DNA of 64,000 bases from assembly GCA_016188065.1 (NCBI GenBank), contig JACPIN010000005.1, positions 13,646 to 77,645 on the forward strand. Direction: 5' to 3'. Source of the stretch: Candidatus Woesearchaeota archaeon (GTDB lineage Archaea; Nanobdellota; Nanobdellia; SCGC-AAA011-G17; ARS1403). A program made the position numbers and the translations under genes. Every line of letters starts with the position of its first letter. Position 1 is the first letter of the stretch. Under the pieces are notes generated by a model that ran no database searches, was not told where the DNA came from, and saw nothing but the letters and a program-made list of their open reading frames with translations. Positions 24,438 through 57,662 of this stretch are shown one piece after another.

Positions 24438-24478
24438 AGTTTGGATAAGCATATAAGCCTTAAGATATTTATTTTTAT

Positions 24479-27910: not shown

Positions 27911-28015
27911 AGTTAATATATATTAACTTTAGTTTATATATCTTTTGGTTTTGTTTCTAAAATCGAAAATTTTAGCAATATTTAAAAGAAGCTTTTTCTT
28001 TAAAGTTTTCATAAT

Positions 28016-28176
28016 GCCCGGGTAGCTCAGCCTGGAAGAACCCTTTTGGAAAAAGCGTTCACGGAAAATTAAGCTTCACCAAAGAAAGCGGTTCTGGGTA
28101 AATAGAGCACAGATCTTAGCAAAAGAGTGCGACACTCCTAATGCTGGGGCCGGGGGTTCGAATCCCCTCTCGGGCG
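28016..28176 (+). tRNA. tRNA-Arg(CCU) with two predicted introns (67 nt in the D loop at 20/21 and 20 nt at 29/30)
   Basis: Acceptor GCCCGGG/CTCGGGC. Removing 28036-28102 restores the canonical D arm GCTC-AGCCTGGTA-GAGC. Removing 28113-28132 gives anticodon arm CAGCA-CTCCTAA-TGCTG. T arm GGGGG-TTCGAAT-CCCCT. Mature length 74. Confidence 0.55.
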
Positions 28177-28177
28177 A

Positions 28178-32022: not shown

Positions 32023-34605
32023 TTATTGTTTCTTGCTGTTTAATTTACTGAATGCATATTCTACCTGCTGCCTGCTCCACCCTCTTTCCAGCAAAGAATC
32101 AGCAATCTTCTCCTCATCGTATCCTTTATCCAGTGCTGATTTTATGTATGACCTGACTTTTGCCAACTCTACTCCTGACTTGAACGGAGATTTCTTGAAT
32201 CTTGAAGAAAGTAAATTTATCACTTCGTATAATTTTAGCTTCTGATAGAGCTTAAATTTATAAAATGCAAATCCGAGCCCTAAAATTAAAATTACTGTGA
32301 CTATAAATGGAATCCATGGAAATCCAGATACAACTACTTTTTCTTCTCTGCAATCCTCTGGGCAGGAGATAATGTCCTCTGCTGGATTGCAAACTCCATC
32401 GCCGCAGTTGAAGGGGATTAAGCTTGGAGAAAGCTCTTTTGGAATTACAACCAATACAGCATCTTTAACACTATTAATATTGTTGGAATGCAGCTTGTAG
32501 GAAAATGAAAATGAGTCTTTTAAAACTGGTATTGTGAACTTTGCACTTTGATAATCCTGCAGCCTTGTTATTTCTGGAAATGAATCTGTGAACTCAATTT
32601 TGTCTTGCGAAGATGCCAGCGAAGTTGGAATTAACTCAATTATGATTGCTTCCCTTATTTCCAGCGGAGTTGTTATAGTTTTCTTTACTAAAATAAAGCT
32701 TTCCTGCTTATTTGGATATGATAATGAAACTGCTGTTGCCGCCACTTCTTTCTGAAGCCTTGAATTTAATTCCTGCAATGTAGCCTTGTAGCTTTCTGTC
32801 TCAAGACCATATAACTTGTTAGTTTCTTCAACTGAAAGATAGGGTGTTATCGTTATTTTATTTACAGCTGTTATTGACGTCGGTATTGAATTTATGAGGT
32901 CATTAACTTCCTCTTCTGTCAATGTTGTTGACGATGACAGCGTTGAAATAGAACTATCTATTTTTTTACCTAAAGCAAGGCTTTCAAAAATCTCTTTTGT
33001 TGCCGGCATGGATAATTTATCTTTAATTGACTGCAGCCTTGAGATTGCTTCCTGAACTAACTCTGTTTTTGCCTTCTCTGAAAATATTTCTACCTGCAGC
33101 GTTTTTTCATCTGATATTCCATTTTCGTCTGTGACTATTAATTTAACTAAATAAACTTTTGGAAGTAGATATGAATGCGTTGTTGTCTTTGCATTAGCTG
33201 TAGTGTTGTCGCCAAAATCCCAGCTGTATGCCAGTTTGGAATCTGATTTTGAGCTTGATGCGTCGAATGTTATTGGCGTCAGCGTTGGTGCAAATTGCTG
33301 TGATATGTTAAAACCTGCTGCTGGCGCTGAGACTACTTGTATGTTTGCAGTTGCTGCTTCAGCCCCATACTCGACTTTTAATGTATAATTTCCAAGGTTT
33401 TTAGGAGCAAAAAGATCAAATTTTGAAACGGGAATTACTGCTTTTGATGATAGTTTATAATATGGCTTTTCTCCTTGTGAGTTCACTCCCAGCAAAAACT
33501 TATTTCTATTATAGGATTGCCCATCTTCAAGAGTTTCTGTGTAAGACAAATCATGGATCTTTACATTGTTTCCATTTTTAGCTGTCACATTAATTGGGAT
33601 TATACAGAAATCATCTTGATATGTACATGCCTGCAGGAAATTTGCGATTGCGTCTTTGAAATATTTTTCTTGAATTGTGTTTGATTCGAAATATTCCAGA
33701 GATTCTTGCAGCGTTGTTATGAAATTTGAAGATTTTGCCTTTATTGCATAATCTGTGTTTTGTATTTTGCTGCATGACGAAGCTGTGCATCTATATCCTT
33801 GTGAGTTAGATACAGAGTCATTTACAGCTAAAACAATTCCTGCTGAAGGCGCTGTCAGGCATATTTTATAATCTCCTTCATTAATTGGAGCAGAAGTTGA
33901 AATCGTACATTCTATTTCGGTAAATGTTTGCTGCAAAGAACTGCATGATTGCAGATTTGTTTCTATTCCTTGTATATATATTCCTAAACTTGGTGGGGCG
34001 GTTATTGATTTTTTTATTGCTGAGCTAATTCTGAATGTGTCTGATTTGTTCAAAAATATTTGCTGGCAGGTTCCTGTAGAATCCAAATTCAATTCTGTTG
34101 CATCGGCTGCATTAATTTCTGCTCCTTTATATTGATTCACATTCCAATCGATAACTGCCGGTGATTTTCCCTGGAATTCCCAGTCTATTATCCCATCATT
34201 GCCTACATCCACTCTTGGAGTGTCTGGATAATTTGCATCCGAATTTGATATATTGAATTTTGCATCAATGCCAATTGTCGAACCTTTTTTTATCCTGATT
34301 CCCGTTAGAAAGTTTGACGAGTTTATTTCTGTTGCTGTTGCTCCTGTGTAAACAAAATACTCTGAAGACTTTTCCTCGCATCCAGATGTGCAATTTATTA
34401 CTTGCTGTATCTGCTTTTCTTTTGAAACTGAATTTATTGAAACCTTTATTGTAGAATCTTTGCTGTAAGCCCCTTCCTGCAAGATAAGATTTCCCGATAA
34501 TTGCTTTTCCTTTCCTGCTTTTGACTCGTTGAAATCAAATGAAACAGCCATAGCCGTGCTTGCAAAAGCTATTAAGACAATCAAAAAGACTAGTTTCTTT
34601 AGCAT
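32023..34605 (-). CDS. Large secreted cell-surface protein with PKD domain and C-terminal TM anchor
   Basis: 860 aa; signal peptide; PKD-like segment (PITFDASSSKSDSKLAYSWDFGDNTTANAKTTTHSYLLPKVYLVKLIVTDENG); C-terminal TM (IPFIVTVILILGLGFAFY) plus cytoplasmic tail. Confidence 0.55.
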   Translation of the reverse strand: MLKKLVFLIVLIAFASTAMAVSFDFNESKAGKEKQLSGNLILQEGAYSKDSTIKVSINSVSKEKQIQQVINCTSGCEEKSSEYFVYTGATATEINSSNFLTGIRIKKGSTIGIDAKFNISNSDANYPDTPRVDVGNDGIIDWEFQGKSPAVIDWNVNQYKGAEINAADATELNLDSTGTCQQIFLNKSDTFRISSAIKKSITAPPSLGIYIQGIETNLQSCSSLQQTFTEIECTISTSAPINEGDYKICLTAPSAGIVLAVNDSVSNSQGYRCTASSCSKIQNTDYAIKAKSSNFITTLQESLEYFESNTIQEKYFKDAIANFLQACTYQDDFCIIPINVTAKNGNNVKIHDLSYTETLEDGQSYNRNKFLLGVNSQGEKPYYKLSSKAVIPVSKFDLFAPKNLGNYTLKVEYGAEAATANIQVVSAPAAGFNISQQFAPTLTPITFDASSSKSDSKLAYSWDFGDNTTANAKTTTHSYLLPKVYLVKLIVTDENGISDEKTLQVEIFSEKAKTELVQEAISRLQSIKDKLSMPATKEIFESLALGKKIDSSISTLSSSTTLTEEEVNDLINSIPTSITAVNKITITPYLSVEETNKLYGLETESYKATLQELNSRLQKEVAATAVSLSYPNKQESFILVKKTITTPLEIREAIIIELIPTSLASSQDKIEFTDSFPEITRLQDYQSAKFTIPVLKDSFSFSYKLHSNNINSVKDAVLVVIPKELSPSLIPFNCGDGVCNPAEDIISCPEDCREEKVVVSGFPWIPFIVTVILILGLGFAFYKFKLYQKLKLYEVINLLSSRFKKSPFKSGVELAKVRSYIKSALDKGYDEEKIADSLLERGWSRQQVEYAFSKLNSKKQ

Positions 34606-35230: not shown

Positions 35231-36124
35231 ATGAATTGGGAAGAATTTTTAGAGAAGCACTATAAGAAACTTTTTGTAGTTCCTGCAATCATGCTGATAT
35301 TTAGTCTGATTGTTGTCGGAATTTTTTTAAACAAAACTGGAGAATTGTTCTACAGAGATGTTAGCTTGAAGGGCGGGATCAGCGCAACGGTTTATGAGAA
35401 AGGCATTGATGCTGAGAAGCTTGAAAAATTTCTTGAAGATGAGCTGGGGACAGATGTGTTTGTCAGGAAGCTTGGAGACATTGCGACAGACAGCGACATC
35501 GGCGTTGTCGTCGAGATTGGCGATGAAGCCACTGGTGAATTGAAAAAACTTATAGAGGAAAATATTGGAAGAGGATTGAATGAAAAAAATTTCAGCATTG
35601 AGCAGGTTAGCAGCAGCCTCGGAGAGAGCTTCTATAACGGCCTGCTTAAGGCAGTGGTGATTTCTTTTGCATTAATGGGGCTTGTTATTTTTGTCGCCTT
35701 CAGAAGCTTTGTCCCAAGCGCTGCGGTGCTATTAAGCGCTTTTCTTGATATAGTATTTCCGCTTTCCATTATGGAGCTGGCGGGAGTAAAGATAAATGCT
35801 GCCGGCATTGCTGCTTTCCTGCTTGTCATAGGATATAGTGTAGACACAGATATACTACTAACAGTTAAAGCATTAAAAAGAAAAGAAGGCAATATTTATC
35901 AGAGGATCATTGATTCTGCAAAGACTGGCTTAACTATGACTTTAGCTACTGTCTGCGCTTTAGGTATTGCTTACTTTATCACAACCAGCTTTGTGCTGAA
36001 GCAGATGTTTATGATTATTGTGATTGCCTTGCTTGTAGACATTGTTTCAACTTATTTCATGAACTCTGGAATATTAATCTGGTATTGCAAGAAACGAGGA
36101 GAAAATGAAAAGTTTTGGGGTTAG
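35231..36124 (+). CDS. secF: Protein-export membrane protein SecF
   Basis: 297 aa; N-terminal TM; DVSLKGGIS (the LDFxGG-type motif); six C-terminal TM helices of the SecDF fold. Confidence 0.7.
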   Translation: MNWEEFLEKHYKKLFVVPAIMLIFSLIVVGIFLNKTGELFYRDVSLKGGISATVYEKGIDAEKLEKFLEDELGTDVFVRKLGDIATDSDIGVVVEIGDEATGELKKLIEENIGRGLNEKNFSIEQVSSSLGESFYNGLLKAVVISFALMGLVIFVAFRSFVPSAAVLLSAFLDIVFPLSIMELAGVKINAAGIAAFLLVIGYSVDTDILLTVKALKRKEGNIYQRIIDSAKTGLTMTLATVCALGIAYFITTSFVLKQMFMIIVIALLVDIVSTYFMNSGILIWYCKKRGENEKFWG

Positions 36125-37832
36125 GATTAACTTGCTTATATTTATGCTGATCTTGTCTTTCATAGCAATAGCTCCCAGACTTAGTGTTGACGGCGTTGAG
36201 ATAAAAAGCTTGGACGTTGTAAGCAAAAGCCAGGGGCTTGGCATCGGAGAGGTTGTAAAGAGCATTGGTGATGCAAATGTGGATAGCCCTGAGAAATTTG
36301 CTGAACTTCTGAAGGATGCCAGTTCTGTCAAGCCTGTGAAGATAAATATTGTTACTGATAAGAATAATGCAAGCTATTTTGCACAAGATGATTTATTGTT
36401 CGAGCTTGATAATTTGACTATCAAGAATTCTAAAATTGGAAACATTAGAGACGGAGAGATGCTGAAAGAGATAAATAATGTTAAGATTGAAAGCATTGAT
36501 GATTGGGAGAGGATTAGATACGAGCTACTGCCAAGCAAAATTGTGAGGATTAAAACCGACAAGAAAGAGTATGTTTTTCAAGTGAACAAGGAAATTGAAA
36601 TAAATGTAAAAGAAGTAAGCAGAAGCAATATCAGGAAAGGCTTGGACCTTGAAGGTGGAACTAGAGTTTTATTAAAGCCTGTTGGGGAGACCAAAGCAAG
36701 CGATCAAGACATTAGAAATTTAATCGATGTCATTTCTGACAGGCTTGACATTTATGGATTAGCAGACAAGAGGATAAGGGCTGCTGATGTCGGCGAGGAT
36801 AAATTAATTCTGATTGAAATTGCAGGCATATCCAAGGAACAGGTTGAAGACTTTATTGCGACACAAGGAAAGTTTGAAGCCAAAATCGGGAATGAAACTG
36901 TTTTTACCGGAGGCAATGATGTTCCATTTGTGTGCAAAGATGATGGAACCTGCTCTGGAGTCAGGAGCTGCAGTTCAGTGAGTGAAGGACAATATGGATG
37001 CAGGTTTGAGTTCAGCATTAAGCTAAGCATTGAAGCTGCCAAAAGGCATGCTGAAATAACAAAAAAATTGGACGTTGTAAGCGGAAGCGGAGTTAGCGGC
37101 GAGGGGTATTTGAGCAAACCACTTGAATTATATCTTGATAATGAGCTGATTGACAGCCTGCAAATCTCCTCCAGCTTGAAGGGCAGCGAGACGACTGATA
37201 TTCTTATTTCTGGAAGCGGGTTTGGCGAGAATCAGGATGCTGCACTGAATGATGCTTTGTTAAATATGGAAAAGCTGCAGACGGTTTTAATTACGGGAAG
37301 CCTTCCATTCCAATTAGAGATTGTAAAAATTGACAGCATCAGCCCAATATTCGGAGAGGAGTTTTTGAAGAACGCGGTCCTTTCCGGCGCTGTTGCAGTG
37401 GTTGCTGTTTTAATTGTAGTGTTTATCCGCTATAGAAATTTCAAAATTATCTTTCCTATGATGATCACTCTATTAAGCGAGATATTTATCATACTTGGAT
37501 TTGCCGGGCTATTCAAATGGAACTTGGATTTAGCTGCGATCGCGGGAATAATTGCTTCTGTCGGCACTGGAGTAGATGACCAGATAGTGATTGCAGATGA
37601 AATATTAAGAGGGAAAGAGCAGTATTTCAACTGGAAAGAAAAATTAAAACGGGCTTTCTTTATAATCCTCGTTGCTTATGCTGCTACATTTGCTGCAATG
37701 CTTCCTTTGATATGGGCTGTTGCCGGCTTATTGAGGGGATTTGCAATTGCAACCCTTGTTGGAGTTACAATTGGAGTATTTGTTACTCGCCCTGCATTTG
37801 GTGCAATGCTTGAAAAACTCATGAACAAATAA
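36105..37832 (+). CDS. secD: Protein-export membrane protein SecD
   Basis: 575 aa; large periplasmic-type domain; GLDLEGGTRVLL motif; C-terminal 6-TM SecDF domain; overlaps secF by 20 nt. Confidence 0.75.
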   Translation: MKSFGVRINLLIFMLILSFIAIAPRLSVDGVEIKSLDVVSKSQGLGIGEVVKSIGDANVDSPEKFAELLKDASSVKPVKINIVTDKNNASYFAQDDLLFELDNLTIKNSKIGNIRDGEMLKEINNVKIESIDDWERIRYELLPSKIVRIKTDKKEYVFQVNKEIEINVKEVSRSNIRKGLDLEGGTRVLLKPVGETKASDQDIRNLIDVISDRLDIYGLADKRIRAADVGEDKLILIEIAGISKEQVEDFIATQGKFEAKIGNETVFTGGNDVPFVCKDDGTCSGVRSCSSVSEGQYGCRFEFSIKLSIEAAKRHAEITKKLDVVSGSGVSGEGYLSKPLELYLDNELIDSLQISSSLKGSETTDILISGSGFGENQDAALNDALLNMEKLQTVLITGSLPFQLEIVKIDSISPIFGEEFLKNAVLSGAVAVVAVLIVVFIRYRNFKIIFPMMITLLSEIFIILGFAGLFKWNLDLAAIAGIIASVGTGVDDQIVIADEILRGKEQYFNWKEKLKRAFFIILVAYAATFAAMLPLIWAVAGLLRGFAIATLVGVTIGVFVTRPAFGAMLEKLMNK

Positions 37833-39685: not shown

Positions 39686-40096
39686 ATGCAACAAGTTTAT
39701 TTACATGCTTTATTTGCTTTTGCATTAGCAGCAATATTGTATCCTTTTATCGGCAATTACAGCATTGTTGTTTTCCTGAGCGGATTTGTCTTTGACATTG
39801 ACCACTACATCTATTACGCTGCCAAAAAAAGAGATTATAATCTTATGAACGGGTATTTTTATCACGTCCCCGGAAGCAAGGTTCATGAGGAGCACAGCGA
39901 TTCACTTCATATCTTTCATACTTGGGAGATGTGGCTGCTGCTTTTTATTCTTGGTCTTTTGATACACGAGATATTTCTATTCACATTAATAGGAATTATA
40001 TTTCACATGATTTTTGACTGGGGATATTTGCTTTTCAACAGCGATGCACTAGGCGAGAGAGCTTGGTCATTAATCGGATGGATTTCAAGAAACTAA
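39686..40096 (+). CDS. Small His-rich membrane protein (possible membrane-bound metal-dependent hydrolase, DUF457-like)
   Basis: 136 aa, 4 TM; His-rich loops (HYIYY, HEEHSDSLH, FHMIFDWGY). Confidence 0.3.
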   Translation: MQQVYLHALFAFALAAILYPFIGNYSIVVFLSGFVFDIDHYIYYAAKKRDYNLMNGYFYHVPGSKVHEEHSDSLHIFHTWEMWLLLFILGLLIHEIFLFTLIGIIFHMIFDWGYLLFNSDALGERAWSLIGWISRN

Positions 40097-40128: not shown

Positions 40129-40248
40129 GCCGAGATCGCATAATCTGGTATTGCGCAGGTCTTGAATGAAACTTTTAGAAAAAGCTTCACCAAAAATAAG
40201 ATAACCTGTTCCCGAGAGGGTATCTGGGTTCAAATCCCAGTCTCGGCG
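40129..40248 (+). tRNA. tRNA-Ser(UGA), class II, with a 36-nt canonical (37/38) intron
   Basis: Acceptor GCCGAGA/TCTCGGC; 3-bp D stem with 11-nt loop; anticodon arm CAGGT-CTTGAA[intron 40167-40202]A-ACCTG; variable arm TCCCGAGAGGGTA; T arm TCTGG-GTTCAAAT-CCCAG. Confidence 0.75.
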
Positions 40249-40290
40249 CGCCATCAAAAAGATTTATATAGAGGTGGATAATAATTATAT

Positions 40291-40731
40291 TTGATGAAAA
40301 AGAGTGTGGCAAGAGCTGAAAGGAAAGACAAAGGGGTAATTTTCGTGTTTTCTATCATTGCATTATTCATTGTAGCTTTGGTTGGATTTAATCTTGAAAA
40401 CGTTACTGCCGGAGCAATAAGGAGTACCAAGACAACTGTAGATGTATCTCCAAAGTTTTTAAATGCGGGAGAGTATGTTACTGTAACTGTAAATCCTGGA
40501 AAGTATTGCGTTAACAGCGTAGTCGGATTCTATGATGATTCTGGATTGAGAAGGGCAACTGCAAGGACTGAAATTGGGAGCCCTAAAAAAGTCTGCCAAC
40601 AGTTCAGCGTCAAATATAAAACAAGCTCTGACTGGAAACCTGATGAAGAAGAGTCTGGAGTGTTTTTAGTAAAAGTATTTGATTACGGAAAGGAAGATTA
40701 TATTACAACTGCTTTCACAATAAATGAGTGA
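40291..40731 (+). CDS. Small secreted/anchored Cys-containing protein, paralog 1 of 3
   Basis: 146 aa; N-terminal TM/signal; conserved block VGFNLENVTAG...VDVSPKFLNAGEYVTVTVNPGKYCVNSVVGFYDD shared with the next two ORFs; stop overlaps the next start. Confidence 0.5.
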   Translation: MMKKSVARAERKDKGVIFVFSIIALFIVALVGFNLENVTAGAIRSTKTTVDVSPKFLNAGEYVTVTVNPGKYCVNSVVGFYDDSGLRRATARTEIGSPKKVCQQFSVKYKTSSDWKPDEEESGVFLVKVFDYGKEDYITTAFTINE

Positions 40732-41191
40732 GGAAATGGAAAAAAATAAATTAATCATCGGTGTTATTGCAGTTATATTGATTGCAGTGATAGGGTTTAA
40801 TTTCGGTAATTTAACTGGGAAGGTTACTAAGAATCTATCTCCGGATGCAACCGTATACCCAAATGTTGTTAAGGCTGGCGAAAAGATAAATGTAAAAGTG
40901 AAGCCAAATAATGGGTGTGTTGATCCTGAAATAGGATTTTATTTTTCTGGAAAATTGAGTGACGGCAGCATTACAAGCAGCGGCGGAAGGAAAGGTGTTG
41001 TGTCGCATAAAGGCGGATATAAGGTATGCAAAAATGATGGATTAATATTAGACAGGGATGGAACATTTACTGTGAGCTATAAGACCGAGCCTGGCTGGGA
41101 TGGAGAGCATTTTGCCAAGGTTTATTATTGGAAGAATAGAAATACAAAAGATTCTGTAAATGCATACTTCAATGTTTTGCCGAAAGAATGA
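40724..41191 (+). CDS. Small secreted/anchored Cys-containing protein, paralog 2 of 3
   Basis: 155 aa; IGFNFGNLTGKVTKNLSPDATVYPNVVKAGEKINVKVKPNNGCVDPEIGFYF; overlaps both neighbours (translational coupling). Confidence 0.5.
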   Translation: MSEEMEKNKLIIGVIAVILIAVIGFNFGNLTGKVTKNLSPDATVYPNVVKAGEKINVKVKPNNGCVDPEIGFYFSGKLSDGSITSSGGRKGVVSHKGGYKVCKNDGLILDRDGTFTVSYKTEPGWDGEHFAKVYYWKNRNTKDSVNAYFNVLPKE

Positions 41192-41649
41192 TGAAAATAA
41201 GCAATATTTTAATAGCTGCAGTTTTTTTAGTATTGATATCTTTATTTTCTTTAAATTTTGAAGAGCTAACCGGATATGTCCCTAAGCAAAGAATTCCTGA
41301 TGTCAGTGTAATTCAGCAGGTTGTTGATGCTGGCGAATACATTGATATTAGAGTTAAAATAAACGGATTCTGCATCGACCCTAAATTTGAAATTTTAACT
41401 AATGTAGATCTGCATAAAGACTATAAGACATATTTACCGACGGAAGATGATTGCGCCAAGCAGAATTTTAGGACGTGCAAGAGCCATAAGTACTGCCCTG
41501 GAGATATTAAAGACGATATCTTGGAATTGAGCTATAAAACACAGCCTGACTTTTATGGAGACTATAAAGTTAGAGTGAAATACATAGAGAAACCTGGACA
41601 GGATGAGTTCTACATGCCTTATATTGAAGCTGGATTCAAAGTTGTGTGA
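41188..41649 (+). CDS. Small secreted/anchored Cys-containing protein, paralog 3 of 3
   Basis: 153 aa; LFSLNFEELTGYVPKQRIPDVSVIQQVVDAGEYIDIRVKINGFCIDP; extra Cys cluster CAKQNFRTCKSHKYC. Confidence 0.5.
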   Translation: MMKISNILIAAVFLVLISLFSLNFEELTGYVPKQRIPDVSVIQQVVDAGEYIDIRVKINGFCIDPKFEILTNVDLHKDYKTYLPTEDDCAKQNFRTCKSHKYCPGDIKDDILELSYKTQPDFYGDYKVRVKYIEKPGQDEFYMPYIEAGFKVV

Positions 41650-41723: not shown

Positions 41724-42320
41724 TTATTGGAGGCTTGTGACATTTTCGATTATTTTTACTAATTTTTCATATCCTTGTAAAACATAACAATTTTTAATAA
41801 TATTCAGAACAACCTCATCTTTTTTCTTTAAGTTTTTAATTAAATCGTCTGGAGTCTGCTTCACTATATGCATGATTTTAGCAGATATTCCTCTTCTTTG
41901 GTTAATCTCTTTTTCTATCATACTATATCTCTCCTTTTTAAAAACAATTAATAAATCAATGTCGTTAGCGGTTTTAGGATTTCTTATAATAGATCCAAAT
42001 ATTATTGCAATCTCAATACATTCAAGCAATTCTTTGAATTCTGACAACCATCTTGATGCCTTCTCTCTTGCCTCTTCCATGAGAAGTATAGACATTAACT
42101 TGATTGTATATTCATCACTAAAATTTATTTTATAAAAAACAGCTTTCCCAAACTCTCTGCTGGTAAGGATATTCTGCGATTTAAGATTCTTGAGCATCTT
42201 TAAAGCCCCCCTCGGAGTTATCCCTATTTTTTTTGAAAGAGAATTGGCGTTATAATTATTAGTAAAATCTTTAAACAAAGTTAATAGTATTTCACTTTCC
42301 TTCTTTGTTAACCTTTTCAT
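41724..42320 (-). CDS. HTH plus minimal nucleotidyltransferase fusion (paralog of 27362..27910 and 46226..46744)
   Basis: 198 aa; N-terminal wHTH (GALKMLKNLKSQNIL); AIIFGSIIRNPKTANDIDLLIVF NTase motif. Confidence 0.65.
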   Translation of the reverse strand: MKRLTKKESEILLTLFKDFTNNYNANSLSKKIGITPRGALKMLKNLKSQNILTSREFGKAVFYKINFSDEYTIKLMSILLMEEAREKASRWLSEFKELLECIEIAIIFGSIIRNPKTANDIDLLIVFKKERYSMIEKEINQRRGISAKIMHIVKQTPDDLIKNLKKKDEVVLNIIKNCYVLQGYEKLVKIIENVTSLQ

Positions 42321-42362
42321 ATATCGGAACTATTTGTTCATATATCGGAACTATTTGTTCAT
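42321..42362. repeat. Perfect tandem duplication of a 21-bp unit (ATATCGGAACTATTTGTTCAT x2) between a TATA-like element and the start codon of the HTH-NTase gene
   Basis: Copies at 42321-42341 and 42342-42362; a TATA-like ATATATAAA follows at 42361-42369; the gene start codon is at 42318-42320 on the minus strand. Confidence 0.8.
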
Positions 42363-42431
42363 ATATAAATCTTTGCATAATTTTTGAATCTAAGTACTTG
42401 AATTTAGTATTGTTTATTTGATGAGACTTAA

Positions 42432-42653
42432 GATACTGCAAAAGAAAAAATAAGTAGAGAATTTATTGTTAAAGAAACTAAATACTATGTCCATGTTTCG
42501 GCATTAGTTAATAGAAAATTAGGCGTGTTAGAATCAGTTATAGAATACCTGAAAGAAAATTATGACTTGAATTATTCTGAGATTGGAAGACTGCTGGGAA
42601 GAGACCCGAGGACGATTTTGACTGCTTATAATCGAACTAGAAAAAAAGAATAA
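42432..42653 (+). pseudogene. ATG-less (5'-truncated) paralog of the small HTH protein encoded at 44005..44235
   Basis: Open frame from the stop at 42429 to the TAA at 42651-42653 encodes ...YYVHVSALVNRKLGVLESVIEYLKENYDLNYSEIGRLLGRDPRTILTAYNRTRKKE, about 80% identical to the 44005 protein but with no in-frame ATG/GTG start. Confidence 0.45.
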
Positions 42654-42665
42654 TTTTCTTTGATT

Positions 42666-43931
42666 TTATTTTAGTAACCATTTCCATAAGGGAATATATT
42701 TTATTTTTTTATTTTTGATTTTTTCTTCTCCTTCTTTGTCTTCTGTTATAACAAGAAGATTAGAGCATTTTAATTCTTTTGAGGCTTTTAGCAATGCTCT
42801 TAATTCTCTTTTTTTTGTATCGATATCAGAGATATCATAACATACCTGAATTAATTGTCCGACTTTTAGTTTTTCTTTTACGACAAAGTCCACTTCTTCA
42901 TGTTGGATATTTTTCCAGTAATAAAACTCAAGATTTGGATTGAAAGATTTTTTCCTTAGAAATTCTAAAGCAACTAAATTTTCATAGAGTCTTCCATAAT
43001 CCTGCGAATGCTTTATCGATACATTATTTATAATTCCAGTGTCTATAGCATAGATTTTTTTCTCGCTTTTTTCAATTTCTACTGGTTTAAAGGAAAACCT
43101 GTTTAGTAAAAAAATCATATAAGCTTCTTCTAGATAAGAAATATAATTTTTTATAGTATGTTCACTTTTAATATTGAATTGCTTCTTTATTTTGTTATAA
43201 CTAATCTTTCTTCCCGGGTTGCTTAGTAAAACTATAGCAATTTCTCTAAATGTTTTCTTATATGCTATGTCATATCTACTAATTATATCTCTCTCCACTA
43301 TCCTTCCGTATAGTTCTCTTAAATATCTCTTTGGATCTTCTTTTTCTACAACAACTTCAGGAAAGCCCCCGTTATTAAGATAGTTTTCAAGTTCCCTCTT
43401 TATAGCACCTTTGCCAATCGTGGTTTCGGTATCTTCTTTGAAATCCATCGCTTTTAAATATTCTTTAAAACTAAACGGAAATAATTCTATTGTTATGTGC
43501 CTGCCTGTTAAATGTGTAGCTAATTCTTTACTTAGTAACCTTGAATTACTACCAGTGATATAAATATTAAATCCTTGCCTTTTTAGCCTGTTGGAGAAGA
43601 GCTCCCACTTATCCAAATTTTGAATTTCATCAAAGAGAATATTTTTGACATTTTTCCCGTAAATTTCCTGGAAGGAGGATAATATCTCATCAGTATCAAA
43701 TTTGGTTAGCCTTTCATCATCAAAGTTCATATAAGCAAATTTTTCATTTTGTAGAAAGGCGTAAGATAATACTGATTTCCCACATCTTCTTGCTCCGATG
43801 ATTACTTTTATTAATTTAGAGGCTACTACATCTTTAAATGATTCATGAGCTTCCCTTTCAACAATCTTCTTTTTTTTTAACCAATCATCTAATTCTCTTT
43901 TCTGATCTCTTAATAAAAGCGTTAATTCCAT
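42666..43931 (-). CDS. AAA+ ATPase of the AAA_14 + DUF4143 family (COG1373-like), copy 1
   Basis: 421 aa; Walker A GARRCGKS, Walker B ILFDEIQ, DUF4143-like C-terminal half; the last ~40 aa are near-identical to copy 2. Confidence 0.75.
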   Translation of the reverse strand: MELTLLLRDQKRELDDWLKKKKIVEREAHESFKDVVASKLIKVIIGARRCGKSVLSYAFLQNEKFAYMNFDDERLTKFDTDEILSSFQEIYGKNVKNILFDEIQNLDKWELFSNRLKRQGFNIYITGSNSRLLSKELATHLTGRHITIELFPFSFKEYLKAMDFKEDTETTIGKGAIKRELENYLNNGGFPEVVVEKEDPKRYLRELYGRIVERDIISRYDIAYKKTFREIAIVLLSNPGRKISYNKIKKQFNIKSEHTIKNYISYLEEAYMIFLLNRFSFKPVEIEKSEKKIYAIDTGIINNVSIKHSQDYGRLYENLVALEFLRKKSFNPNLEFYYWKNIQHEEVDFVVKEKLKVGQLIQVCYDISDIDTKKRELRALLKASKELKCSNLLVITEDKEGEEKIKNKKIKYIPLWKWLLK

Positions 43932-44004
43932 AGATTTATGGCGTATTTTAACTATATAAATCTTTGTTTTTATAATACGTAAAAATTATAAATTTTACGC
44001 ATTT

Positions 44005-44235
44005 ATGGTTTTTATGATAATTAACTGTAATGGGTTAATTTTAGACGACTACAAAAACCTCCCAACCTTTTCTGTTCCTGTTTCTGCATTGACCGATAGA
44101 AAACTTGGTGTTCTTGAGAGTGTTGTGAAATTCTTGAAGGAAAATTACGAGCTGAATTATTCTGAGATTGGAAGATTATTGGGAAGAGATCCAAGAACTG
44201 TTTGGACTGCTTATTCGAGAGGGAAGAAGAATTAG
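44005..44235 (+). CDS. Small HTH protein with a DnaA-domain-IV-like motif
   Basis: 76 aa; LNYSEIGRLLGRDPRTVWTAYSRG resembles the DnaA C-terminal (F)GGRDHTTV(IHA) DNA-binding signature. Confidence 0.5.
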   Translation: MVFMIINCNGLILDDYKNLPTFSVPVSALTDRKLGVLESVVKFLKENYELNYSEIGRLLGRDPRTVWTAYSRGKKN

Positions 44236-44254
44236 ATATTATAGTAGAATAGAT

Positions 44255-45550
44255 TCATACTTGTAATAGCCACTTCCATAAGGGAATAAATTTTATCTTT
44301 TTATTTTTGATTTTTTCTTCCCCTTCTTTGTCTTCGGTTATAACTAAAAGATTATTACATTTTAGTTCCTTTGAAGCTTTTAATAGGGATTTCAATTCCC
44401 GTTCTTTTGTGCTAAGCTCTTCCAAGGAACAGCATACCTGAATTAGTTCCTTTACCTTTTTATTTTCAATAACAACGAAATCAGTTTCTTTTGCATTAGA
44501 GGATTTGTGATAGTAAACCTCTTTATTCTTTCTCAACAATTCAATAAAAACCAGATTTTCCATAAGTTTGTCCATGTCTTTGATCCCATTAATTGTCAAT
44601 AAACCATTATCTATAATATACATCTTTGGCAGAGATTGCTCTTTTTCCCTGTAAGAATATGAGAATTTCCTTAATGGGAAAGCGAAGAAAACATCATTTA
44701 AAGCATCAACATAATTATAAAGGGCATCTTTACTTGCTTTAATTCCTTGAGACTTTACAAAATTGTAAAATTTATGGACAGAAAATTCTCTTGCAATGGA
44801 ATTTATTAAAGTATTTATGAGTATCCTCAAAAGCTTTATATTTCGAATCTTATATCTTTCAATTACATCTCTAACAATTGTTGTTTCAACTATATCACGA
44901 TGAATTTTTTCTCTCTCTTTTTCATATAAAGCCACTTCAGGATATCCCCCTTTTTCAAGATAGTTTCTGAAATGGCTAAGAAGATTCCTCTTCCCTGATT
45001 TGGAAAGATATTTTTCGATTTTGAAACTCTTAAAGTGCAGATACTCTAAGAAAGAAAGGGGAAAAATTGTATAGGTTAGAGTTCTTCCTCTCATAGAGGT
45101 GGCAATTTCTCGGCTTAGGAGTTTTGAGGAAGAGCCTGAAAGAAATAGCTGTAATCTTTCATTGTCAATCAGGGTTCTTACTGAATTTTCCCATCCATCA
45201 ACCACTTGTATTTCATCAAAAAAAACCCAGCATTTCTTTTTTTCATTGTCAGGATATATCTCGAAAAAGGTATCAATTAAAACCAAGATGTCCTTCCCAG
45301 TGATCCCTTCAAGCTCTGCTCTTTCGAAGTTAATATACAATAATCTCGTTTTTTCAATTCCGTTGTTAATAAGTTCTGTTATGACTTGGAATAACCTAAA
45401 AGTTTTCCCGGACCTTCTAGGGCCAATGAGAGATATTGACCTCCTTAAGGGGATATAATCGGGGATATTTAAACTTCTTTTAATTAGATGGGGCAAATCC
45501 TTTTCATGAAAATCCTTTATAATTTCTCCGAGATTGGATTTAGTTATCAT
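44255..45550 (-). CDS. AAA+ ATPase of the AAA_14 + DUF4143 family, copy 2
   Basis: 431 aa; Walker A GPRRSGKT, Walker B VFFDEIQ; C-terminus LKASKELKCNNLLVITEDKEGEEKIKNKKIKFIPLWKWLL nearly identical to copy 1. Confidence 0.75.
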   Translation of the reverse strand: MITKSNLGEIIKDFHEKDLPHLIKRSLNIPDYIPLRRSISLIGPRRSGKTFRLFQVITELINNGIEKTRLLYINFERAELEGITGKDILVLIDTFFEIYPDNEKKKCWVFFDEIQVVDGWENSVRTLIDNERLQLFLSGSSSKLLSREIATSMRGRTLTYTIFPLSFLEYLHFKSFKIEKYLSKSGKRNLLSHFRNYLEKGGYPEVALYEKEREKIHRDIVETTIVRDVIERYKIRNIKLLRILINTLINSIAREFSVHKFYNFVKSQGIKASKDALYNYVDALNDVFFAFPLRKFSYSYREKEQSLPKMYIIDNGLLTINGIKDMDKLMENLVFIELLRKNKEVYYHKSSNAKETDFVVIENKKVKELIQVCCSLEELSTKERELKSLLKASKELKCNNLLVITEDKEGEEKIKNKKIKFIPLWKWLLQV

Positions 45551-45670
45551 GGTATTTCATAGAAGGAAATTATTTATAAATGTTTCCTTTTATAAAATCT
45601 GTAATTTATTGTAATGTCTTCCTTAATTTTTAAGTGGATTAATTCCTTCTTCAGAATCATTTCAACAACT

Positions 45671-45688
45671 ATTTCCATAGGGAATATA
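45671..45688. repeat. Decayed third copy of the 3' end of the AAA_14/DUF4143 ATPase gene
   Basis: ATTTCCATAGGGAATATA matches CATTTCCATAAGGGAATA(T/A)A at the stops of both ATPase genes (42669-42690 and 44268-44290), but no ORF follows. Confidence 0.4.
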
Positions 45689-45714
45689 GATTATCAAGGT
45701 TTTAAAAAGACGAA

Positions 45715-46131
45715 GTGTTGACCGTAAGCGTTGATTTATTAATTGGTGGAATGGGACTAAGGCAGACAGATTCATCTTTAAGTTTTGATATTATGAATAA
45801 GAATTCCACCCAGAAAGTTATAAATGGTCTGGAGAAAGAAATTAAAATTAAGATTCCTTCAAAAGAATTGTTAATTGCCATGAAATTTCATTCTGGAAGA
45901 TGATCCGATATTAGAGATATTATAGCCTTGATGCCATGCAATGAGGAAAAACTAAAAGTGCACATAGCAAAAGGAAATATAAAATTGCTAAAAGAAAATG
46001 TAGACAGGCAGAAAAAGTTCTTGGAAAAACCACAATTTGATGACAGCTTTAAGGTAATTTTTGGAATCAAAAGTTATAATGAGAAGAAGGTAAAGGAGGC
46101 AAAAAAAATTAATAAATACAGAGTATATTAA
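45715..46131 (+). pseudogene. Single reading frame interrupted by an in-frame TGA (45901-45903); unknown small protein, possibly a decayed partner of the adjacent NTase
   Basis: ORFs 45715..45903 and 45928..46131 are in the same frame (offset 213 nt) with an open frame between them except for one TGA. Confidence 0.3.
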
Positions 46132-46225
46132 AGTTATAAATATGCAGCAGAAGACTAAATCCTCAAATTTTTATCAGGATTCTGTTTTTTAACATCGCCC
46201 TTTTTTAAAAAAATTTCAAAATCTT

Positions 46226-46744
46226 TTACCATGATCCTTCCAGCACAATTCCATTAGTAAGACTTGCTTTAAATTCATTACTTATTTTATTTAAATCGAA
46301 TTCATGCAGATTTATGTGTTTTCTTAAAATCTTTTCATATTTTCCCATATTTAAGTCAATTTTTTTCTTTGTAAATACTGCTATATCTATATCAGACTTT
46401 TCTATATCATCCCCCCTGGAGAAACTTCCAAATAATATTATATTTTTTGGATGGTTGTATAAATTTGAGATATAATCTATAACACCTGATTTATAAATAT
46501 TTTCAAGATTGTGTAGACGCTTGAACCTTATAAAATTCATATTTTCCCTATCTGCCTGCACTTTAGTTATTACCTTTCCCTTAGTTTTTATAATCAATTT
46601 TTCTCTCGATAAAATATCTGTAGAAGCAACTATTGTAGGCATAGAAAACTTCAACAACCTAGAAAGTTCCCTAAGATGAAATTCTTTAGCGGGATTATCA
46701 AAAAATATATCTAATACCTTCTGAATGGTAGATTTTTCTATCAT
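46226..46744 (-). CDS. HTH plus minimal nucleotidyltransferase fusion (third paralog)
   Basis: 172 aa; wHTH N-terminus (FHLRELSRLLKFSMPTI); IILFGSFSRGDDIEKSDIDIAVF. Confidence 0.65.
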   Translation of the reverse strand: MIEKSTIQKVLDIFFDNPAKEFHLRELSRLLKFSMPTIVASTDILSREKLIIKTKGKVITKVQADRENMNFIRFKRLHNLENIYKSGVIDYISNLYNHPKNIILFGSFSRGDDIEKSDIDIAVFTKKKIDLNMGKYEKILRKHINLHEFDLNKISNEFKASLTNGIVLEGSW

Positions 46745-51489: not shown

Positions 51490-54189
51490 ATGGAAGAGAG
51501 TTCTGCTAAAGAGGCCTTGAAAAACGATTTCGGAGATAAGGCTTTAGAGGAAAGAAAACAGAAGATTTTTGCTTATTTTAAGAAAGACAAGAAATGGATA
51601 ATCTGGCTGGCTTTTGCTTTTATTGCCTGGTTTGGGTTTTGGATAAGGACCAGGAATATTCCTCTGTTGAAAGATGTTACTACGGGCGATTTTATCCAGG
51701 CAGATCCTGATGCTACTGCTTTCCTGAGATATGCAAAATACATTGTTGAGAATGGAAGATTGATGGATATTGACTTGATGAGGTATTACCCTTGGGGATA
51801 CGGAAACATGGTTGAATTTAAATTACTGAGTTATGCAATTGCTTACTTCTACAAATTCTTGCATTTCTTTAACTCCGATGTTACTGTTGGGTATGCGCAT
51901 GTTCTTTATCCACCTGTAGCTTTTGTAATTGGATTGATATTTTTCTTTTTGCTTGTTAGAAAACTATTTGATTATAGAATTGCTTTGCTTTCTAGTTTAT
52001 TATTGACAATAATTCCCCCGTATCTTTTTAGGACGATAGCCGGCGTGGGGGACAAAGAAGCATTTGGCATGATATTCTTTTTTGCTGCTTTATATTTTTT
52101 TGTTTGCGGCTGGAAGTCAGAAACTCTAAAGAAAAACTTAATTTTTGGAGCACTAGCTGGATTATCGACAGGCGTTATGGGACTTATTTGGGGCGGATTT
52201 GCCTTCGTAGTTACGATAATTGCCATTTTTTGCTTGATAGCTTTTACCTTTCTTGAATTTAACAGGCAAAGATTTTTTTCTTATGCTGTGTGGTATTTTA
52301 TTTTTTATCTAATCATGATTATTTTCAGAGGTTATAGATTAAATACCATAATCGGCGGCTATTATCATGCATTAGCCTTATTTACTTTATTAATTGGGGT
52401 AATTATTTATCTATCTTTAAAATATAACCTCAAAAACCTTATTGAAAAAAAATCCAAATTGCCTTACACAATTTCTATATCCATTTCTGTTATAATTATT
52501 GGGACCATTATTTCGCTGATTGTCATAGGAGGAGAGTTTGTATTTGGGCATATCGAGCAGGTATATGATACCTTAACAAGCCCATTTGGAAACGACCGAT
52601 GGCAATTAACTGTTGCTGAGGCGCATCAGCCATACTTGATTGAATTCATTAACTTTGTGAGCTGGAAATTTTTCTGGATTTATTTCATTGGCTCTATACT
52701 GATGGTTTATTTCTTGTTAAACAAAATAGATAAAAAGACAAGGAGTTGTGGTTTAATTATCTATACTTTATTCATTGTTGGATTTAGCTTTAGCAGATTT
52801 TCTCAGAATTCGAAAATTCTAAACGGAGAAAGCTTCTTTTCACTCAACATTATGTATCTAGGGGGTATTTCTATTGTGATGGTTTCATTCTTAGCCTACT
52901 ATCTTTATACTTACTATAAAAATAAAGAAGTTTTTGAAAAATTAAAGACCTTAGATGATAAATATTTATTTGTATTGATATGGCTGGTTGTCTTGCTTGT
53001 CGGCTCTAGAAGTGCAATAAGATTATTATTTATTTTCTCTACAATCGCATCTTTATTAGCAGCTTACTTTTGCATTAAGCTCTTTGATATTTCGCTTAAA
53101 TTTAAAAAAGATATTTACAAAATTTCAATTTGGATATTTCTAATTCTTGTTTTAGTAAATCCTTTTGCAATTGCCGGAAGTTTTGCTTATGGATTATTTA
53201 ATAAAGGCATCATTCTCGAGCATTCCCAGATAACCTATAATCAGGCAAGATATACTGGAACTGGATATGGCCAGCAATGGCAGATAGCTGGAAAATGGGT
53301 CAGAGAAAATGTGCCTGAAGATGCAATTTTTGCCCACTGGTGGGATTATGGTTATTGGGTGCAAACAAATTTTAATAGAGTAACAGTTACAGATGGGGGG
53401 AATGCTAAAGCTAGTTTAAACCACTATATGGGGAGATATGGGTTAACAGGACAAAATGAATTAGAAGCATTGGAATTTTTCAAAGCCCATAATGTTACCA
53501 ATTTCTTAGCTGTTTCTGATGAAATTGGAAAGTATCCTGCTTTTTCATCAATTGGAAGCGATGAGAATTGGGACAGATATTCCTGGCTGCCCCCCTTCCA
53601 AATGGATACAAGCAAGACTCAAGAAACAAGAGAGTATACTGTTTATGTTTACGGAGGGGTAAGCCCTCTTGATTATGATTTCAGATTCAATGGAGCATTA
53701 TACCCTAAAGGCGGCTCTGCCATAATCGGTTTCTTTATTCCTACAAAAGAAGAGAATGGAACCTTGAAGATAGAAACACCAGCTGCTGCCGTAATAAATC
53801 AAGGACAGCAAAGACAGATTCCACTTGAATGTATTTTTTTCAATGGACAGGAGATTTATTTCAATCAAAAAGGCTTGAAGGGGTGTTTCCATATCTTCCC
53901 TAGTGTTGATGGGCAAAAAGTTAATAATATTGGAGCAGGGATATATGTTTCTGAAAAAGTTAAGAAAACAATATTTGCCCAGCTTTATTTGTTTGGCAAG
54001 CCAGGAAAATATTTTAAATTGGCTTATAGCGATGAAAACCAGATACCCTTGGCACTTTATAACGGAAGATTAATAGGGCCGTTGAAAATCTGGGGGGTTA
54101 CATATCCTGAAAACCTAGGGGTTCCGGAGCATTACTATGAAGATGTGTTGATAAATCCAAATGTAACAAGCTTGGAAGGAAGGTATTAA
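51490..54189 (+). CDS. aglB: Oligosaccharyltransferase AglB (STT3 homolog)
   Basis: 899 aa; 13 TM N-terminal domain; WWDYGYW motif (HWWDYGYWVQ) and downstream DGG/DK-type motif region (TVTDGGNAKAS). Confidence 0.9.
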   Translation: MEESSAKEALKNDFGDKALEERKQKIFAYFKKDKKWIIWLAFAFIAWFGFWIRTRNIPLLKDVTTGDFIQADPDATAFLRYAKYIVENGRLMDIDLMRYYPWGYGNMVEFKLLSYAIAYFYKFLHFFNSDVTVGYAHVLYPPVAFVIGLIFFFLLVRKLFDYRIALLSSLLLTIIPPYLFRTIAGVGDKEAFGMIFFFAALYFFVCGWKSETLKKNLIFGALAGLSTGVMGLIWGGFAFVVTIIAIFCLIAFTFLEFNRQRFFSYAVWYFIFYLIMIIFRGYRLNTIIGGYYHALALFTLLIGVIIYLSLKYNLKNLIEKKSKLPYTISISISVIIIGTIISLIVIGGEFVFGHIEQVYDTLTSPFGNDRWQLTVAEAHQPYLIEFINFVSWKFFWIYFIGSILMVYFLLNKIDKKTRSCGLIIYTLFIVGFSFSRFSQNSKILNGESFFSLNIMYLGGISIVMVSFLAYYLYTYYKNKEVFEKLKTLDDKYLFVLIWLVVLLVGSRSAIRLLFIFSTIASLLAAYFCIKLFDISLKFKKDIYKISIWIFLILVLVNPFAIAGSFAYGLFNKGIILEHSQITYNQARYTGTGYGQQWQIAGKWVRENVPEDAIFAHWWDYGYWVQTNFNRVTVTDGGNAKASLNHYMGRYGLTGQNELEALEFFKAHNVTNFLAVSDEIGKYPAFSSIGSDENWDRYSWLPPFQMDTSKTQETREYTVYVYGGVSPLDYDFRFNGALYPKGGSAIIGFFIPTKEENGTLKIETPAAAVINQGQQRQIPLECIFFNGQEIYFNQKGLKGCFHIFPSVDGQKVNNIGAGIYVSEKVKKTIFAQLYLFGKPGKYFKLAYSDENQIPLALYNGRLIGPLKIWGVTYPENLGVPEHYYEDVLINPNVTSLEGRY

Positions 54190-54190
54190 A

Positions 54191-54829
54191 ATGCCGGAAA
54201 TTTACGAAGAAGATTATCATAGGATTATACATAAACATTTATTACAAGATGAAAAATATTATCTATTTAGAGCAAAACATGCTACTAAAAGCTATTGGAA
54301 GCATTTAAACGGGAAAGTTTTGGAATTTGGGTGTGGAATTGGACAGAATATTTATCTTCAAAAAGATAAAGCAATTGGGCTAGACATCAGTAACTTTTGC
54401 AAAAATGAATGTGAGAAAAGAGGAATTAAGATAGTTCAAGATTCTAGGAAAATAAAAGATAATTCTTTTGATAGCATATTAGCCTGCCATGTGTTGGAGC
54501 ATATGGAGAATCCTGCTGAGATATTAAGAGAATTTCATAGGCTGCTTAACGATAGTGGCAGATTAGTTTTGGTTCTGCCGGTATCTTGCCATAACAAACC
54601 TTATAGAAACTGGAAGTCAGATAGATCAAAACACTTATTTCAATGGAATTTTGCTGCCATTAATGAGCTTCTGCATTTCATTGGATTTAAAATAAAATTA
54701 AATAGCTTTAATTACGCTTATGGCTATTCTATTTTTTATAAATTGCCTTTTTTTATTGGATATAATTCTCTTCAGCTATCTGGATTTTTGAGAAATAGAA
54801 AAGAGATGATTATTGTTGCAGATAAATAA
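54191..54829 (+). CDS. Class I SAM-dependent methyltransferase (Methyltransf_11-like)
   Basis: 212 aa; VLEFGCGIGQN motif I and ILACHVLEHMENP motif. Confidence 0.65.
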   Translation: MPEIYEEDYHRIIHKHLLQDEKYYLFRAKHATKSYWKHLNGKVLEFGCGIGQNIYLQKDKAIGLDISNFCKNECEKRGIKIVQDSRKIKDNSFDSILACHVLEHMENPAEILREFHRLLNDSGRLVLVLPVSCHNKPYRNWKSDRSKHLFQWNFAAINELLHFIGFKIKLNSFNYAYGYSIFYKLPFFIGYNSLQLSGFLRNRKEMIIVADK

Positions 54830-54864
54830 ATTTAAATACGTTAACTATTGTTAATTTAAATAAG

Positions 54865-56899: not shown

Positions 56900-56951
56900 C
56901 TTAAAGAAGCCACTAAGTTAATCTTATAAATATTCTTACTAAATAAACGTT

Positions 56952-57662
56952 ATGAAAAGTGTTGACATTGTTATCCCTATCTACTATAATAACATTGATG
57001 AAATTGAGCCGAGTGTTAGAGAACAAATTGATTTCTATAAAAAAAATCTGAAAGAGTATAGATGGAAAATTGTAATCGGTATTAACGGACTTGATAAAAA
57101 TGGCATCGTTGAAAAGGTAGAAGACCTTTCTAAGAGATATGAAAATGTTGCCTATGATTATACTGATCAAGCAGGAAGGGGGGCTTCTTTGAATAGGACT
57201 TTTGTCAACAGCAAGGCTGATTTTGTTTGTTACATGGATGTTGATCTTGCCACTGGGTTGGATGCTGTTCCCAGAATGCTAAAAGAGCTAGAATATTACG
57301 AAGTTGTTGTTGGCTCAAAATATATTAAGGATGCAAAATATAATCGGACACCCCTAAGATTTGTACTTTCTAAAATCTACAACTTAATTATCACAAAGTT
57401 AATTTTAAATGCTAAGTTCAGTGATGCTCAATGTGGTTTTAAGGGGATGCACACTTTAATAGCTAGAGAGATTATGCCACTTGTAGAGGACAAGGGGTGG
57501 TTTTTAGATACCGAGATTTTATATATTGTTCAGAAAAAAGGATACAAATTTAAGGAGATCCCTGTCCACTGGATTGAAAGAGAAAATAGTGGTGTTAAGC
57601 TGCTCAAAACTGTAAAAGATTTTACTGTTAAAACAATTAGATTGAGATATAGAAATCTTTAA
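56952..57662 (+). CDS. GT2 dolichyl-phosphate glycosyltransferase (DPM1/AglD/AglJ-like)
   Basis: 236 aa; VDIVIPIYYN..., MDVDLATG DxD-type motif; soluble DPM1-like size. Confidence 0.7.
   Translation: MKSVDIVIPIYYNNIDEIEPSVREQIDFYKKNLKEYRWKIVIGINGLDKNGIVEKVEDLSKRYENVAYDYTDQAGRGASLNRTFVNSKADFVCYMDVDLATGLDAVPRMLKELEYYEVVVGSKYIKDAKYNRTPLRFVLSKIYNLIITKLILNAKFSDAQCGFKGMHTLIAREIMPLVEDKGWFLDTEILYIVQKKGYKFKEIPVHWIERENSGVKLLKTVKDFTVKTIRLRYRNL

Follow-up and report, generated by a model that had tools for sequence, protein, structure and literature searches.

The episymbiotic lifestyle of DPANN archaea depends on the cell surface, and we know of no envelope component of the Woesearchaeota that has been characterised so far. 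The S-layer and surface glycoproteins of Haloferax volcanii (csg, PDB 7ptp) and Nitrosopumilus maritimus (PDB 8c8k) are large, consist of several domains, form lattices and are anchored at the C-terminus. For archaellins and ArlB-like proteins of a DPANN archaeon, the hallmark cited (bioRxiv 10.1101/2023.10.27.564410) is a hydrophobic N-terminal helix that leads into a single immunoglobulin (Ig)-like domain, in a protein of about 150 residues. Here we describe three adjacent genes, A, B and C, at positions 40291–41649 of a 64,000-nucleotide stretch of a Candidatus Woesearchaeota archaeon (contig JACPIN010000005.1, positions 13,646 to 77,645; hereafter the window). They form a stable, slowly evolving unit, and we give roughly an even chance to the reading that their products make up a co-translated hetero-oligomer of membrane-anchored (or Thr-Gly-processed) Ig-like envelope proteins in Woesearchaeales.

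Gene A (40294–40731, + strand) encodes 145 residues from its ATG, in a frame open from 40291; gene B (40736–41191, +) encodes 151 residues, and gene C (41188–41649, or from a start at 41191, +) 153 or 152 residues. An alternative upstream ATG of B at 40724 (155 residues) overlaps the A stop by 8 nt; B orthologues begin with MEKNK, corresponding to the codon at 40736, which lies 4 nt past the A stop and is preceded by GAGGA. B and C meet in an ATGA junction with a 4-nt overlap. The A product is 100% identical to NCBI HYV89_01875 (P0043) and the C product is identical to HYV89_01885; NCBI annotates the family as ‘hypothetical protein’. An element resembling a B recognition element (BRE) and TATA box, AAGATTTATATAG, is located at 40258–40272 (+), approximately 24–31 nt upstream of the A start codon. 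Its putative promoter function is suggested by the archaeal promoter consensus, and its spacing is equal in L004, L013, L014, L008 and L015 despite their differing upstream genes. In L016–L018 the element lies farther upstream, and a GAGGTG Shine–Dalgarno sequence precedes the A start codon. With their own conserved BRE/TATA promoter and coupled junctions, the three genes constitute one autonomous, translationally coupled operon.

A family hidden Markov model (HMM) recovered exactly three genes, in the order A–B–C and with junctions of −11 to +4 nt, in nine of nine distinct loci (the window, L004, L013, L014, L008, L015, L016, L017 and L018), and no further family copy in the 64-kb window. A profile search of 5.8 billion proteins yielded 84 relatives, all of approximately 145–160 residues, with three orthogroups of near-equal size (27, 32 and 24 members); all relatives named at source are labelled Woesearchaeota or Nanoarchaeota. 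With B orthologues as the only query, the B type was found in 7 of 185,579 GTDB species-representative genomes (one genome per species), all of them metagenome-assembled genomes of Woesearchaeota or Nanoarchaeota. The trio clade is restricted to a sub-group of Woesearchaeales (DPANN).

The ratio of non-synonymous to synonymous substitution rates (dN/dS; Nei–Gojobori method, four close genomes) is 0.08–0.15 for A, 0.04–0.09 for B and 0.03–0.04 for C, values to be read with synonymous sites near saturation. Identities to the L008 and L001 orthologues are 59–61% for A, 61–62% for B and 62–66% for C, on a par with those of the flanking genes: 64–68% for SecF, 66–79% for SecD, 67–73% for Trm56, 62% for the AI-2E transporter, 59–64% for AglB/STT3 and, with the L008 orthologue only, 57% for a PKD surface protein. 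The trio is under strong purifying selection and evolves like core envelope genes; it is not diversifying. A first reading of the sequence alone had suggested a fast-evolving, diversifying family and had looked ahead to copy-number variation. Neither expectation agrees with these rates or with a set that is always three genes in fixed order, and the result corrects the view of the trio as a diversifying host-interaction family.

Alignment of the three proteins reveals a common layout, in which a short charged N-terminus is followed by a hydrophobic helix of 16–19 residues, a [GS][FL]N[FL]xx[ILV]T[GA] motif and an ectodomain with the pattern V.P...aGE.i.v.V...C...K.C...YKT...G...F. Protein A has a K/R-rich N-terminal tail, an 18-residue hydrophobic helix, the motif GFNLENVTAG and a predicted β-sandwich ectodomain with two cysteines. 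The hydrophobic helix of B is followed by GFNFGNLTG and that of C by SLNFEELTG, again ahead of predicted β-sandwich ectodomains, with two and four cysteines, respectively. When ectodomains only were compared by BLASTP, A matched B (E = 7e-5) and B matched C (E = 3e-8); A and C do not match significantly in a direct comparison and are connected via the profile. Cysteines are located at residues 72 and 101 of A, 61 and 98 of B, and 61, 88, 96 and 102 of C. The extra two in C belong to an inserted C-x7-C loop, the remainder occupy matching columns, and each paralogue has an even number of conserved cysteines.

Much of the sequence-only reading is upheld by these comparisons. The three coupled, paralogous open reading frames (ORFs) with an N-terminal hydrophobic anchor or signal were recovered by ORF calling, alignment, BLASTP and profile searches; the shared block that it described survives alignment, with the N..TG motif, V, AGE, C, K.C, YKT, G and F retained; and the matching cysteines and the cysteine insertion of the third copy are as it described. 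Its statement that the proteins lack a recognisable family also stands at the level of sequence, with nothing in Pfam or NCBIfam at E ≤ 1 apart from noise, no PADLOC match for A, B or C, and nothing under E = 0.4 in a search of PDB sequences. Full-text literature searches returned no description of the family or of its leader. The family is new and unannotated, and belongs to a kind already known, that of N-terminally tethered or secreted Ig-like archaeal surface proteins.

AlphaFold2, supplied with family alignments, produced confident models of B and C, with predicted local distance difference test (pLDDT) scores of 88.5 and 88.3, respectively. Both models consist of an N-terminal helix, a low-confidence stretch that begins at or after the Thr-Gly pair, and a complete β-sandwich of 7–8 strands. 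The two sheets superpose on known Ig and macroglobulin (MG) domains, as in Ig-like/E-set (MG-like) sandwiches. Fold matches include MG domains of complement C3/C4/C5, Ig domains of PECAM, RbmA, Ig-like modules of glycosidases, and archaeal S-layer Ig domains (H. volcanii csg with both models, N. maritimus with model C only). Foldseek returned weak, generic Ig matches only, the best at E = 2.6e-4. The predicted fold is thus a generic one, an MG-type sandwich of the Ig-like class for which no specific functional relative emerged. PmoD and AA10 were among the weak Foldseek matches; a copper site or one like that of lytic polysaccharide monooxygenases was rejected, as there is no conserved His or Met. 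Membership of the α2-macroglobulin/thioester family was rejected as well, the proteins being single-domain, 145–152 residues long and without an A2M Pfam match.

By architecture, the main alternative is that the three proteins are pilin-like and serve as the major and minor subunits of a surface filament, be it a non-canonical type-IV-like one or one of another type. The architecture matches the archaellin/ArlB-like hallmark cited above, the leader is more conserved than the head domain, tandem paralogues also occur in the wider family, and protein A of the window has K-G-V-I just before its helix. Nevertheless, this alternative fails the tests of cleavage motif, profile match, fold and helix packing, and we consider it unlikely. 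The position before the helix (−1) is not G, A or S in B (MEKNK|LIIG) or C (MKISN|ILIA), and A orthologues mostly have D-N-S|I rather than [KR]-G, K-G|V being found in the window’s A only. No match to the pilin and archaellin families of Pfam or NCBIfam (Pilin_N, Class_IIIsignal, Arch_flagellin) was obtained at E ≤ 1, and neither a pilin nor an archaellin appears in the lists of fold matches. In the models the helix ends at approximately residues 22–31 and gives way to a flexible linker, so that it does not pack continuously on the sheet; the long helix packed on a sheet and the similarity to solved pilins that mark this fold are both absent from the models. No gene for PilB/ArlI, PilC/ArlJ or a prepilin peptidase lies within 8–10 kb of the triad in the loci with listed flanks, or among the Pfam-scanned ORFs of the window.

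The trio belongs to a much larger set of proteins. An exhaustive profile search of 1.84 billion cluster representatives identified 187 clusters at E ≤ 1e-3, most of them of 125–170 residues and of the same design, with a similar leader such as MEKDNKILLGAVLILLVAMVSFNFxxITGKAV; a second search with a broad alignment returned 30 proteins and added nothing. Across 121 diverged members, the Thr and Gly after the helix are conserved at 93% and 98%, respectively, and the only other columns at 90% or above lie in the domain, a single Gly and a single Phe; for the Asn of FNF the figure is 78%. Pairwise identity among 110 generic members is 33% in the leader and 24% in the ectodomain, against an expectation of 9% from composition. 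Within the orthogroups, the helix and motif are as conserved as the ectodomain in A, slightly less so in B and more so in C, and each paralogue has its own conserved helix sequence. Tandem paralogous pairs are common in the wider family (L009, L010, L011), single genes occur in L019 and L020, and the gene contexts characterised are archaeal (Sec61-beta, the nascent polypeptide-associated complex, diphthamide synthase), with thin context for distant members, three of the five contigs examined being 1–1.6 kb long.

The same domain is also found after ordinary A-x-A signal peptides. P0223 carries three tandem copies and an N-glycan-rich tail, P0203 at least four copies, and P0202 two copies together with dockerins, a C25 peptidase (Peptidase_C25) and a PEGA domain. 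A Rosetta-stone test on P0223 placed all three of its domains nearest subfamily A, giving no fusion support for an A–B–C interaction. An extracytoplasmic, cell-surface location of the trio is likely because of its paired cysteines, its Ig-like fold and the presence of the same domain in secreted dockerin, Peptidase_C25 and PEGA proteins, as the sequence-only reading had proposed in calling the proteins surface or secreted.

The leader motif was compared with several known signals. It was rejected as an N-glycosylation sequon, since an Asn stands two residues before the Thr in only approximately 17% of members, and as a lipobox, since it has no Cys. A sortase LPXTG signal does not apply to a motif that is N-terminal, follows the helix and lacks Pro, and no NCBIfam match at E ≤ 1 points to a SipW-cognate (TasA-type, TIGR04088) signal peptide.

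In the favoured reading, A, B and C would be made in equal amounts from one transcript and exported by means of their N-terminal hydrophobic segments, taking up an N-in/C-out topology. Each would then present a single, probably disulfide-stabilised Ig-like (macroglobulin/E-set-type) sandwich at the outer face of the cytoplasmic membrane, joined to its helix by a short flexible hinge starting at the conserved Thr-Gly. Together they would assemble into a hetero-oligomeric complex of defined stoichiometry in the envelope, where its role would be a housekeeping or structural one, possibly in scaffolding or spacing under the surface layer, or in another core envelope task. That the paralogues work together is suggested by the fixed A–B–C order, the 1:1:1 copy number and the equal, slow rates; together with translational coupling, these features typically mark obligate complexes. 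We lean modestly towards retention of the helix as an anchor in the trio, rather than its cleavage, because of its conservation in the three orthogroups, the paralogue-specific helix sequences and the long hydrophobic region (h-region).

Several points weigh against this proposal. The physical interaction of A, B and C is deduced indirectly, from gene order, copy number, rates and coupling; the fold matches are generically Ig-like and give no specific function; and synteny with envelope genes is seen in some lineages only, the triads of L004, L012 and L013 having other contexts. The Thr-Gly motif would also suit signal peptidase I, having I/L/V at −3 and G at −1, and the distance from it to the first strand resembles the classical cleavage-site spacing of the multi-domain relatives, so that the trio proteins may be released rather than anchored.

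The last two points bear on the possibility, which we hold as doubtful yet serious, that the leader is a dedicated cleaved signal peptide. The hydrophobic segment, FNFxxITG included, would then be cut off by signal peptidase I or a dedicated protease, either at Thr-Gly or beside it, and the Ig-like domains would be set free as soluble (hetero)oligomers in the pseudo-periplasm or the surface layer. The leader has an n-h-c layout with an h-region of 16–19 residues, I, L, V, M or F at −3 and G at −1, and the Thr and Gly are nearly invariant across the 121 diverged members; the predicted disorder starts directly after Thr-Gly, and in the relatives with A-x-A signals a stretch of comparable length separates the cleavage site from the start of the domain. 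The same type of leader is also carried by a different cargo: a 155-residue protein at 3560–4027 of L019 has a hydrophobic helix followed by GNMTGKV, and an unrelated ectodomain, which suggests that the leader is a portable module. The fit of [ILVMF]-T-G to the −3/−1 rule of Sec signal peptidase I is nonetheless a loose one, and the h-region is long and the leader highly conserved. F at −3 in approximately 17% of family members, and W in some, is unusual for signal peptidase I, and other secreted proteins of the window use ordinary A-x-A signal peptides with shorter h-regions. The leader is moreover better conserved than the ectodomain both in the wider family and in orthogroup C, which is atypical for a signal peptide that is discarded.

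A more far-reaching idea, which we rate as rather unlikely, is that the FNFxx[ILF]-Thr-Gly leader is an unrecognised DPANN-specific N-terminal sorting or processing signal, a counterpart of the sortase and archaeosortase signals that would be read by a dedicated protease or transpeptidase. Such a signal would route a large family of small Ig-like proteins to one specific site in the envelope, and A–B–C would be the fixed core of an assembly at the surface, perhaps a lattice anchor or a new non-type-IV filament.

The surroundings of the operon are shared with two relatives. In the window, L008 and L001, the genes for a PKD surface protein, Trm56, SecF, SecD, a small ORF, enzymes of nucleoside diphosphate (NDP)-sugar metabolism and a 136-residue membrane protein, and then a tRNA-Ser gene (detected in the window and L001, not detected in L008), precede the triad, which is followed by SpoIIM, an AI-2E transporter, RimB/RimK and AglB. 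Envelope genes around the trio comprise those for the PKD surface protein, SecDF, an NDP-sugar enzyme, SpoIIM, AglB, glycosyltransferases and a flippase. The region is rich in such genes because it contains, besides the PKD surface protein (32023–34605) and SecDF (35231–37832), an N-glycosylation cluster at 51490–62537, which encodes AglB/STT3 (899 residues), a radical SAM protein, a GT2 glycosyltransferase, an NAD-dependent epimerase/dehydratase, a GT4-family (Glycos_transf_4) glycosyltransferase and a Polysacc_synt flippase.

This neighbourhood raises the possibility that the three proteins are accessory subunits of an adjacent machine, namely the SecDF translocon, the SpoIIM-like membrane protein or the AglB oligosaccharyltransferase. 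The order SecF–SecD ... triad–SpoIIM ... AglB is kept in the window, L008 and L001, and SpoIIM directly follows the triad on the same strand in L008 and L001. The triad has its own promoter, however, and is found in unrelated surroundings in L004/L012 and L013. Nearly all archaea have SecDF and AglB, and the triad is confined to the seven GTDB genomes noted above. A structural match to OST48 is one of more than 1,000 generic Ig-like matches. We judge such a role very unlikely.

The tRNA gene adjacent to the trio, noted in the sequence-only reading, is a tRNA-Ser(UGA) at 40129–40249 (+) with a 36–38-nt intron in the anticodon loop. It is overlooked by default ARAGORN and by a whole-window Rfam scan at gathering thresholds, and is recovered by intron-aware ARAGORN (aragorn -i) and by a local Rfam scan (RF00005, 44.6 bits, E = 1e-8). 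The same tRNA-Ser follows the gene of the 136-residue membrane protein in L001, L004 and L014, and is a conserved upstream neighbour located outside the operon. The membrane protein gene itself (39686–40096, +), linked to tRNA-Ser in the window and in those three loci, encodes a multi-pass protein with the His/Asp-rich motifs FDIDHY, HIFHTWE and HMIFDW; it matched nothing in Pfam or NCBIfam, and shares 62–88% identity with its orthologues in L008, L001 and L014. Intron-aware ARAGORN on the 64-kb window also called a tRNA-Trp(CCA) with a 20-nt intron and a doubtful tRNA-Ala with a 68-nt intron (24321–24439; 28015–28177); among the ARAGORN calls of the window, the Ser gene alone was confirmed by Rfam.

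Between the triad and SpoIIM, the window contains a specific 5-kb insertion (41.7–46.8 kb) that is absent from L008 and L001. Its genes (41724–46744, − strand) form two tandem pairs, each combining a winged helix-turn-helix (wHTH) and polymerase-β (Pol-beta) nucleotidyltransferase (41724–42320 and 46226–46744, −) with an AAA_14/DUF4143 ATPase (42666–43931 and 44255–45550, −). PADLOC assigned the insertion pairs to the candidate defence families PDC-M05A (E = 3e-13) and PDC-S01 (E = 1e-110). Parts of the ATPase genes are 70–83% identical in nucleotide sequence at a spacing of approximately 1.59 kb, and a perfect 21-nt tandem repeat, TTCATATATCGGAACTATTTG, is present in two copies at 42316–42357, starting in the first codons of a nucleotidyltransferase gene (start codon at 42320, − strand) and running upstream. 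In L001, genes for a LAGLIDADG protein, a RuBisCO large subunit and an IF-2B-family (ribose-1,5-bisphosphate isomerase-like) protein lie between tRNA-Ser and the triad (4589–7923); in L004, an rve integrase and approximately 7 kb of methyltransferase, NUDIX and flavoprotein genes likewise lie between the two (158–7403). The conserved tRNA-Ser thus has a hot spot for insertions on its 3′ side. The triad is kept in all relatives examined, the insertions fall on either side of it and exclude it, and it is flanked by hot spots rather than being island cargo.

The sequence-only reading had placed the trio at the edge of a tRNA-linked island and proposed a fast-evolving family of adhesins, host-interaction factors, effectors or immunity proteins. 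The probable surface location in an episymbiotic lineage, the adjacent tRNA-Ser and the variable, defence-like insertion directly downstream are what such a role would lead one to expect. Membership of an island is at odds with the conserved synteny, which is kept on both sides in relatives without the insertion, and with the operon’s own promoter and the separateness of the insertion; no repeat of the tRNA 3′ end was found in the window even with three mismatches allowed, and no integrase gene was found near the triad among the window ORFs scanned. An effector or immunity role finds no echo in profile searches, which gave no toxin, immunity or defence match for the trio, or in the IMG/VR viral contigs, which contain no relative of it. 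The conservation data, namely strong purifying selection at core-gene rates together with invariant copy number and gene order, contradict both the effector/immunity reading and that of a fast-evolving adhesin, and a single Ig domain of approximately 120 residues on a short tether would be unlikely to reach past the surface layer as an adhesin. We regard this explanation as most improbable.

Elsewhere in the window, a 585-residue ORF with a Peptidase_S74 domain (an endosialidase chaperone of the phage tail-fibre type) overlaps the start of a 404-residue ORF, for which a classical signal peptide but no match in Pfam was found (16802–19760, −).

Unannotated, clade-specific and strongly constrained, the trio is a candidate structural component of the Woesearchaeales envelope, a role proposed because of this constraint and of slow evolution similar to that of SecDF and AglB. 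It offers a defined target for structure prediction, metaproteomics and heterologous expression. The near-invariant Thr-Gly leader is the most intriguing lead, and could reveal how small surface proteins are sorted in these organisms.

Relative to MG/E-set domains such as α2-macroglobulin MG2 (PDB 2p9r) and those of C3/C4/C5, each member of the trio is a single domain of approximately 120 residues on an N-terminal helix, and it lacks a thioester, a bait region and a multi-MG array, with 15–17% sequence identity and no profile match. With archaeal type IV pilins, archaellins and ArlB-like proteins the trio shares small size, an N-terminal helix with one Ig-like domain, a conserved N-terminus and tandem paralogues; it differs in having a hinge after the helix and in lacking the class III [KR][GAS] cleavage motif in B, C and A orthologues. 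The leader resembles YSIRK-G/S and TasA-type signals in that a conserved motif in or just after a hydrophobic export segment is common to diverged cargo, whereas the motif itself, FNFxx[ILF]TG-x-[AV][VTI], is different and cleavage is here a putative step. In contrast to the large, C-terminally anchored S-layer glycoproteins, the members of the trio are single-domain proteins, apparently tethered at the N-terminus, and are made as a set of three.

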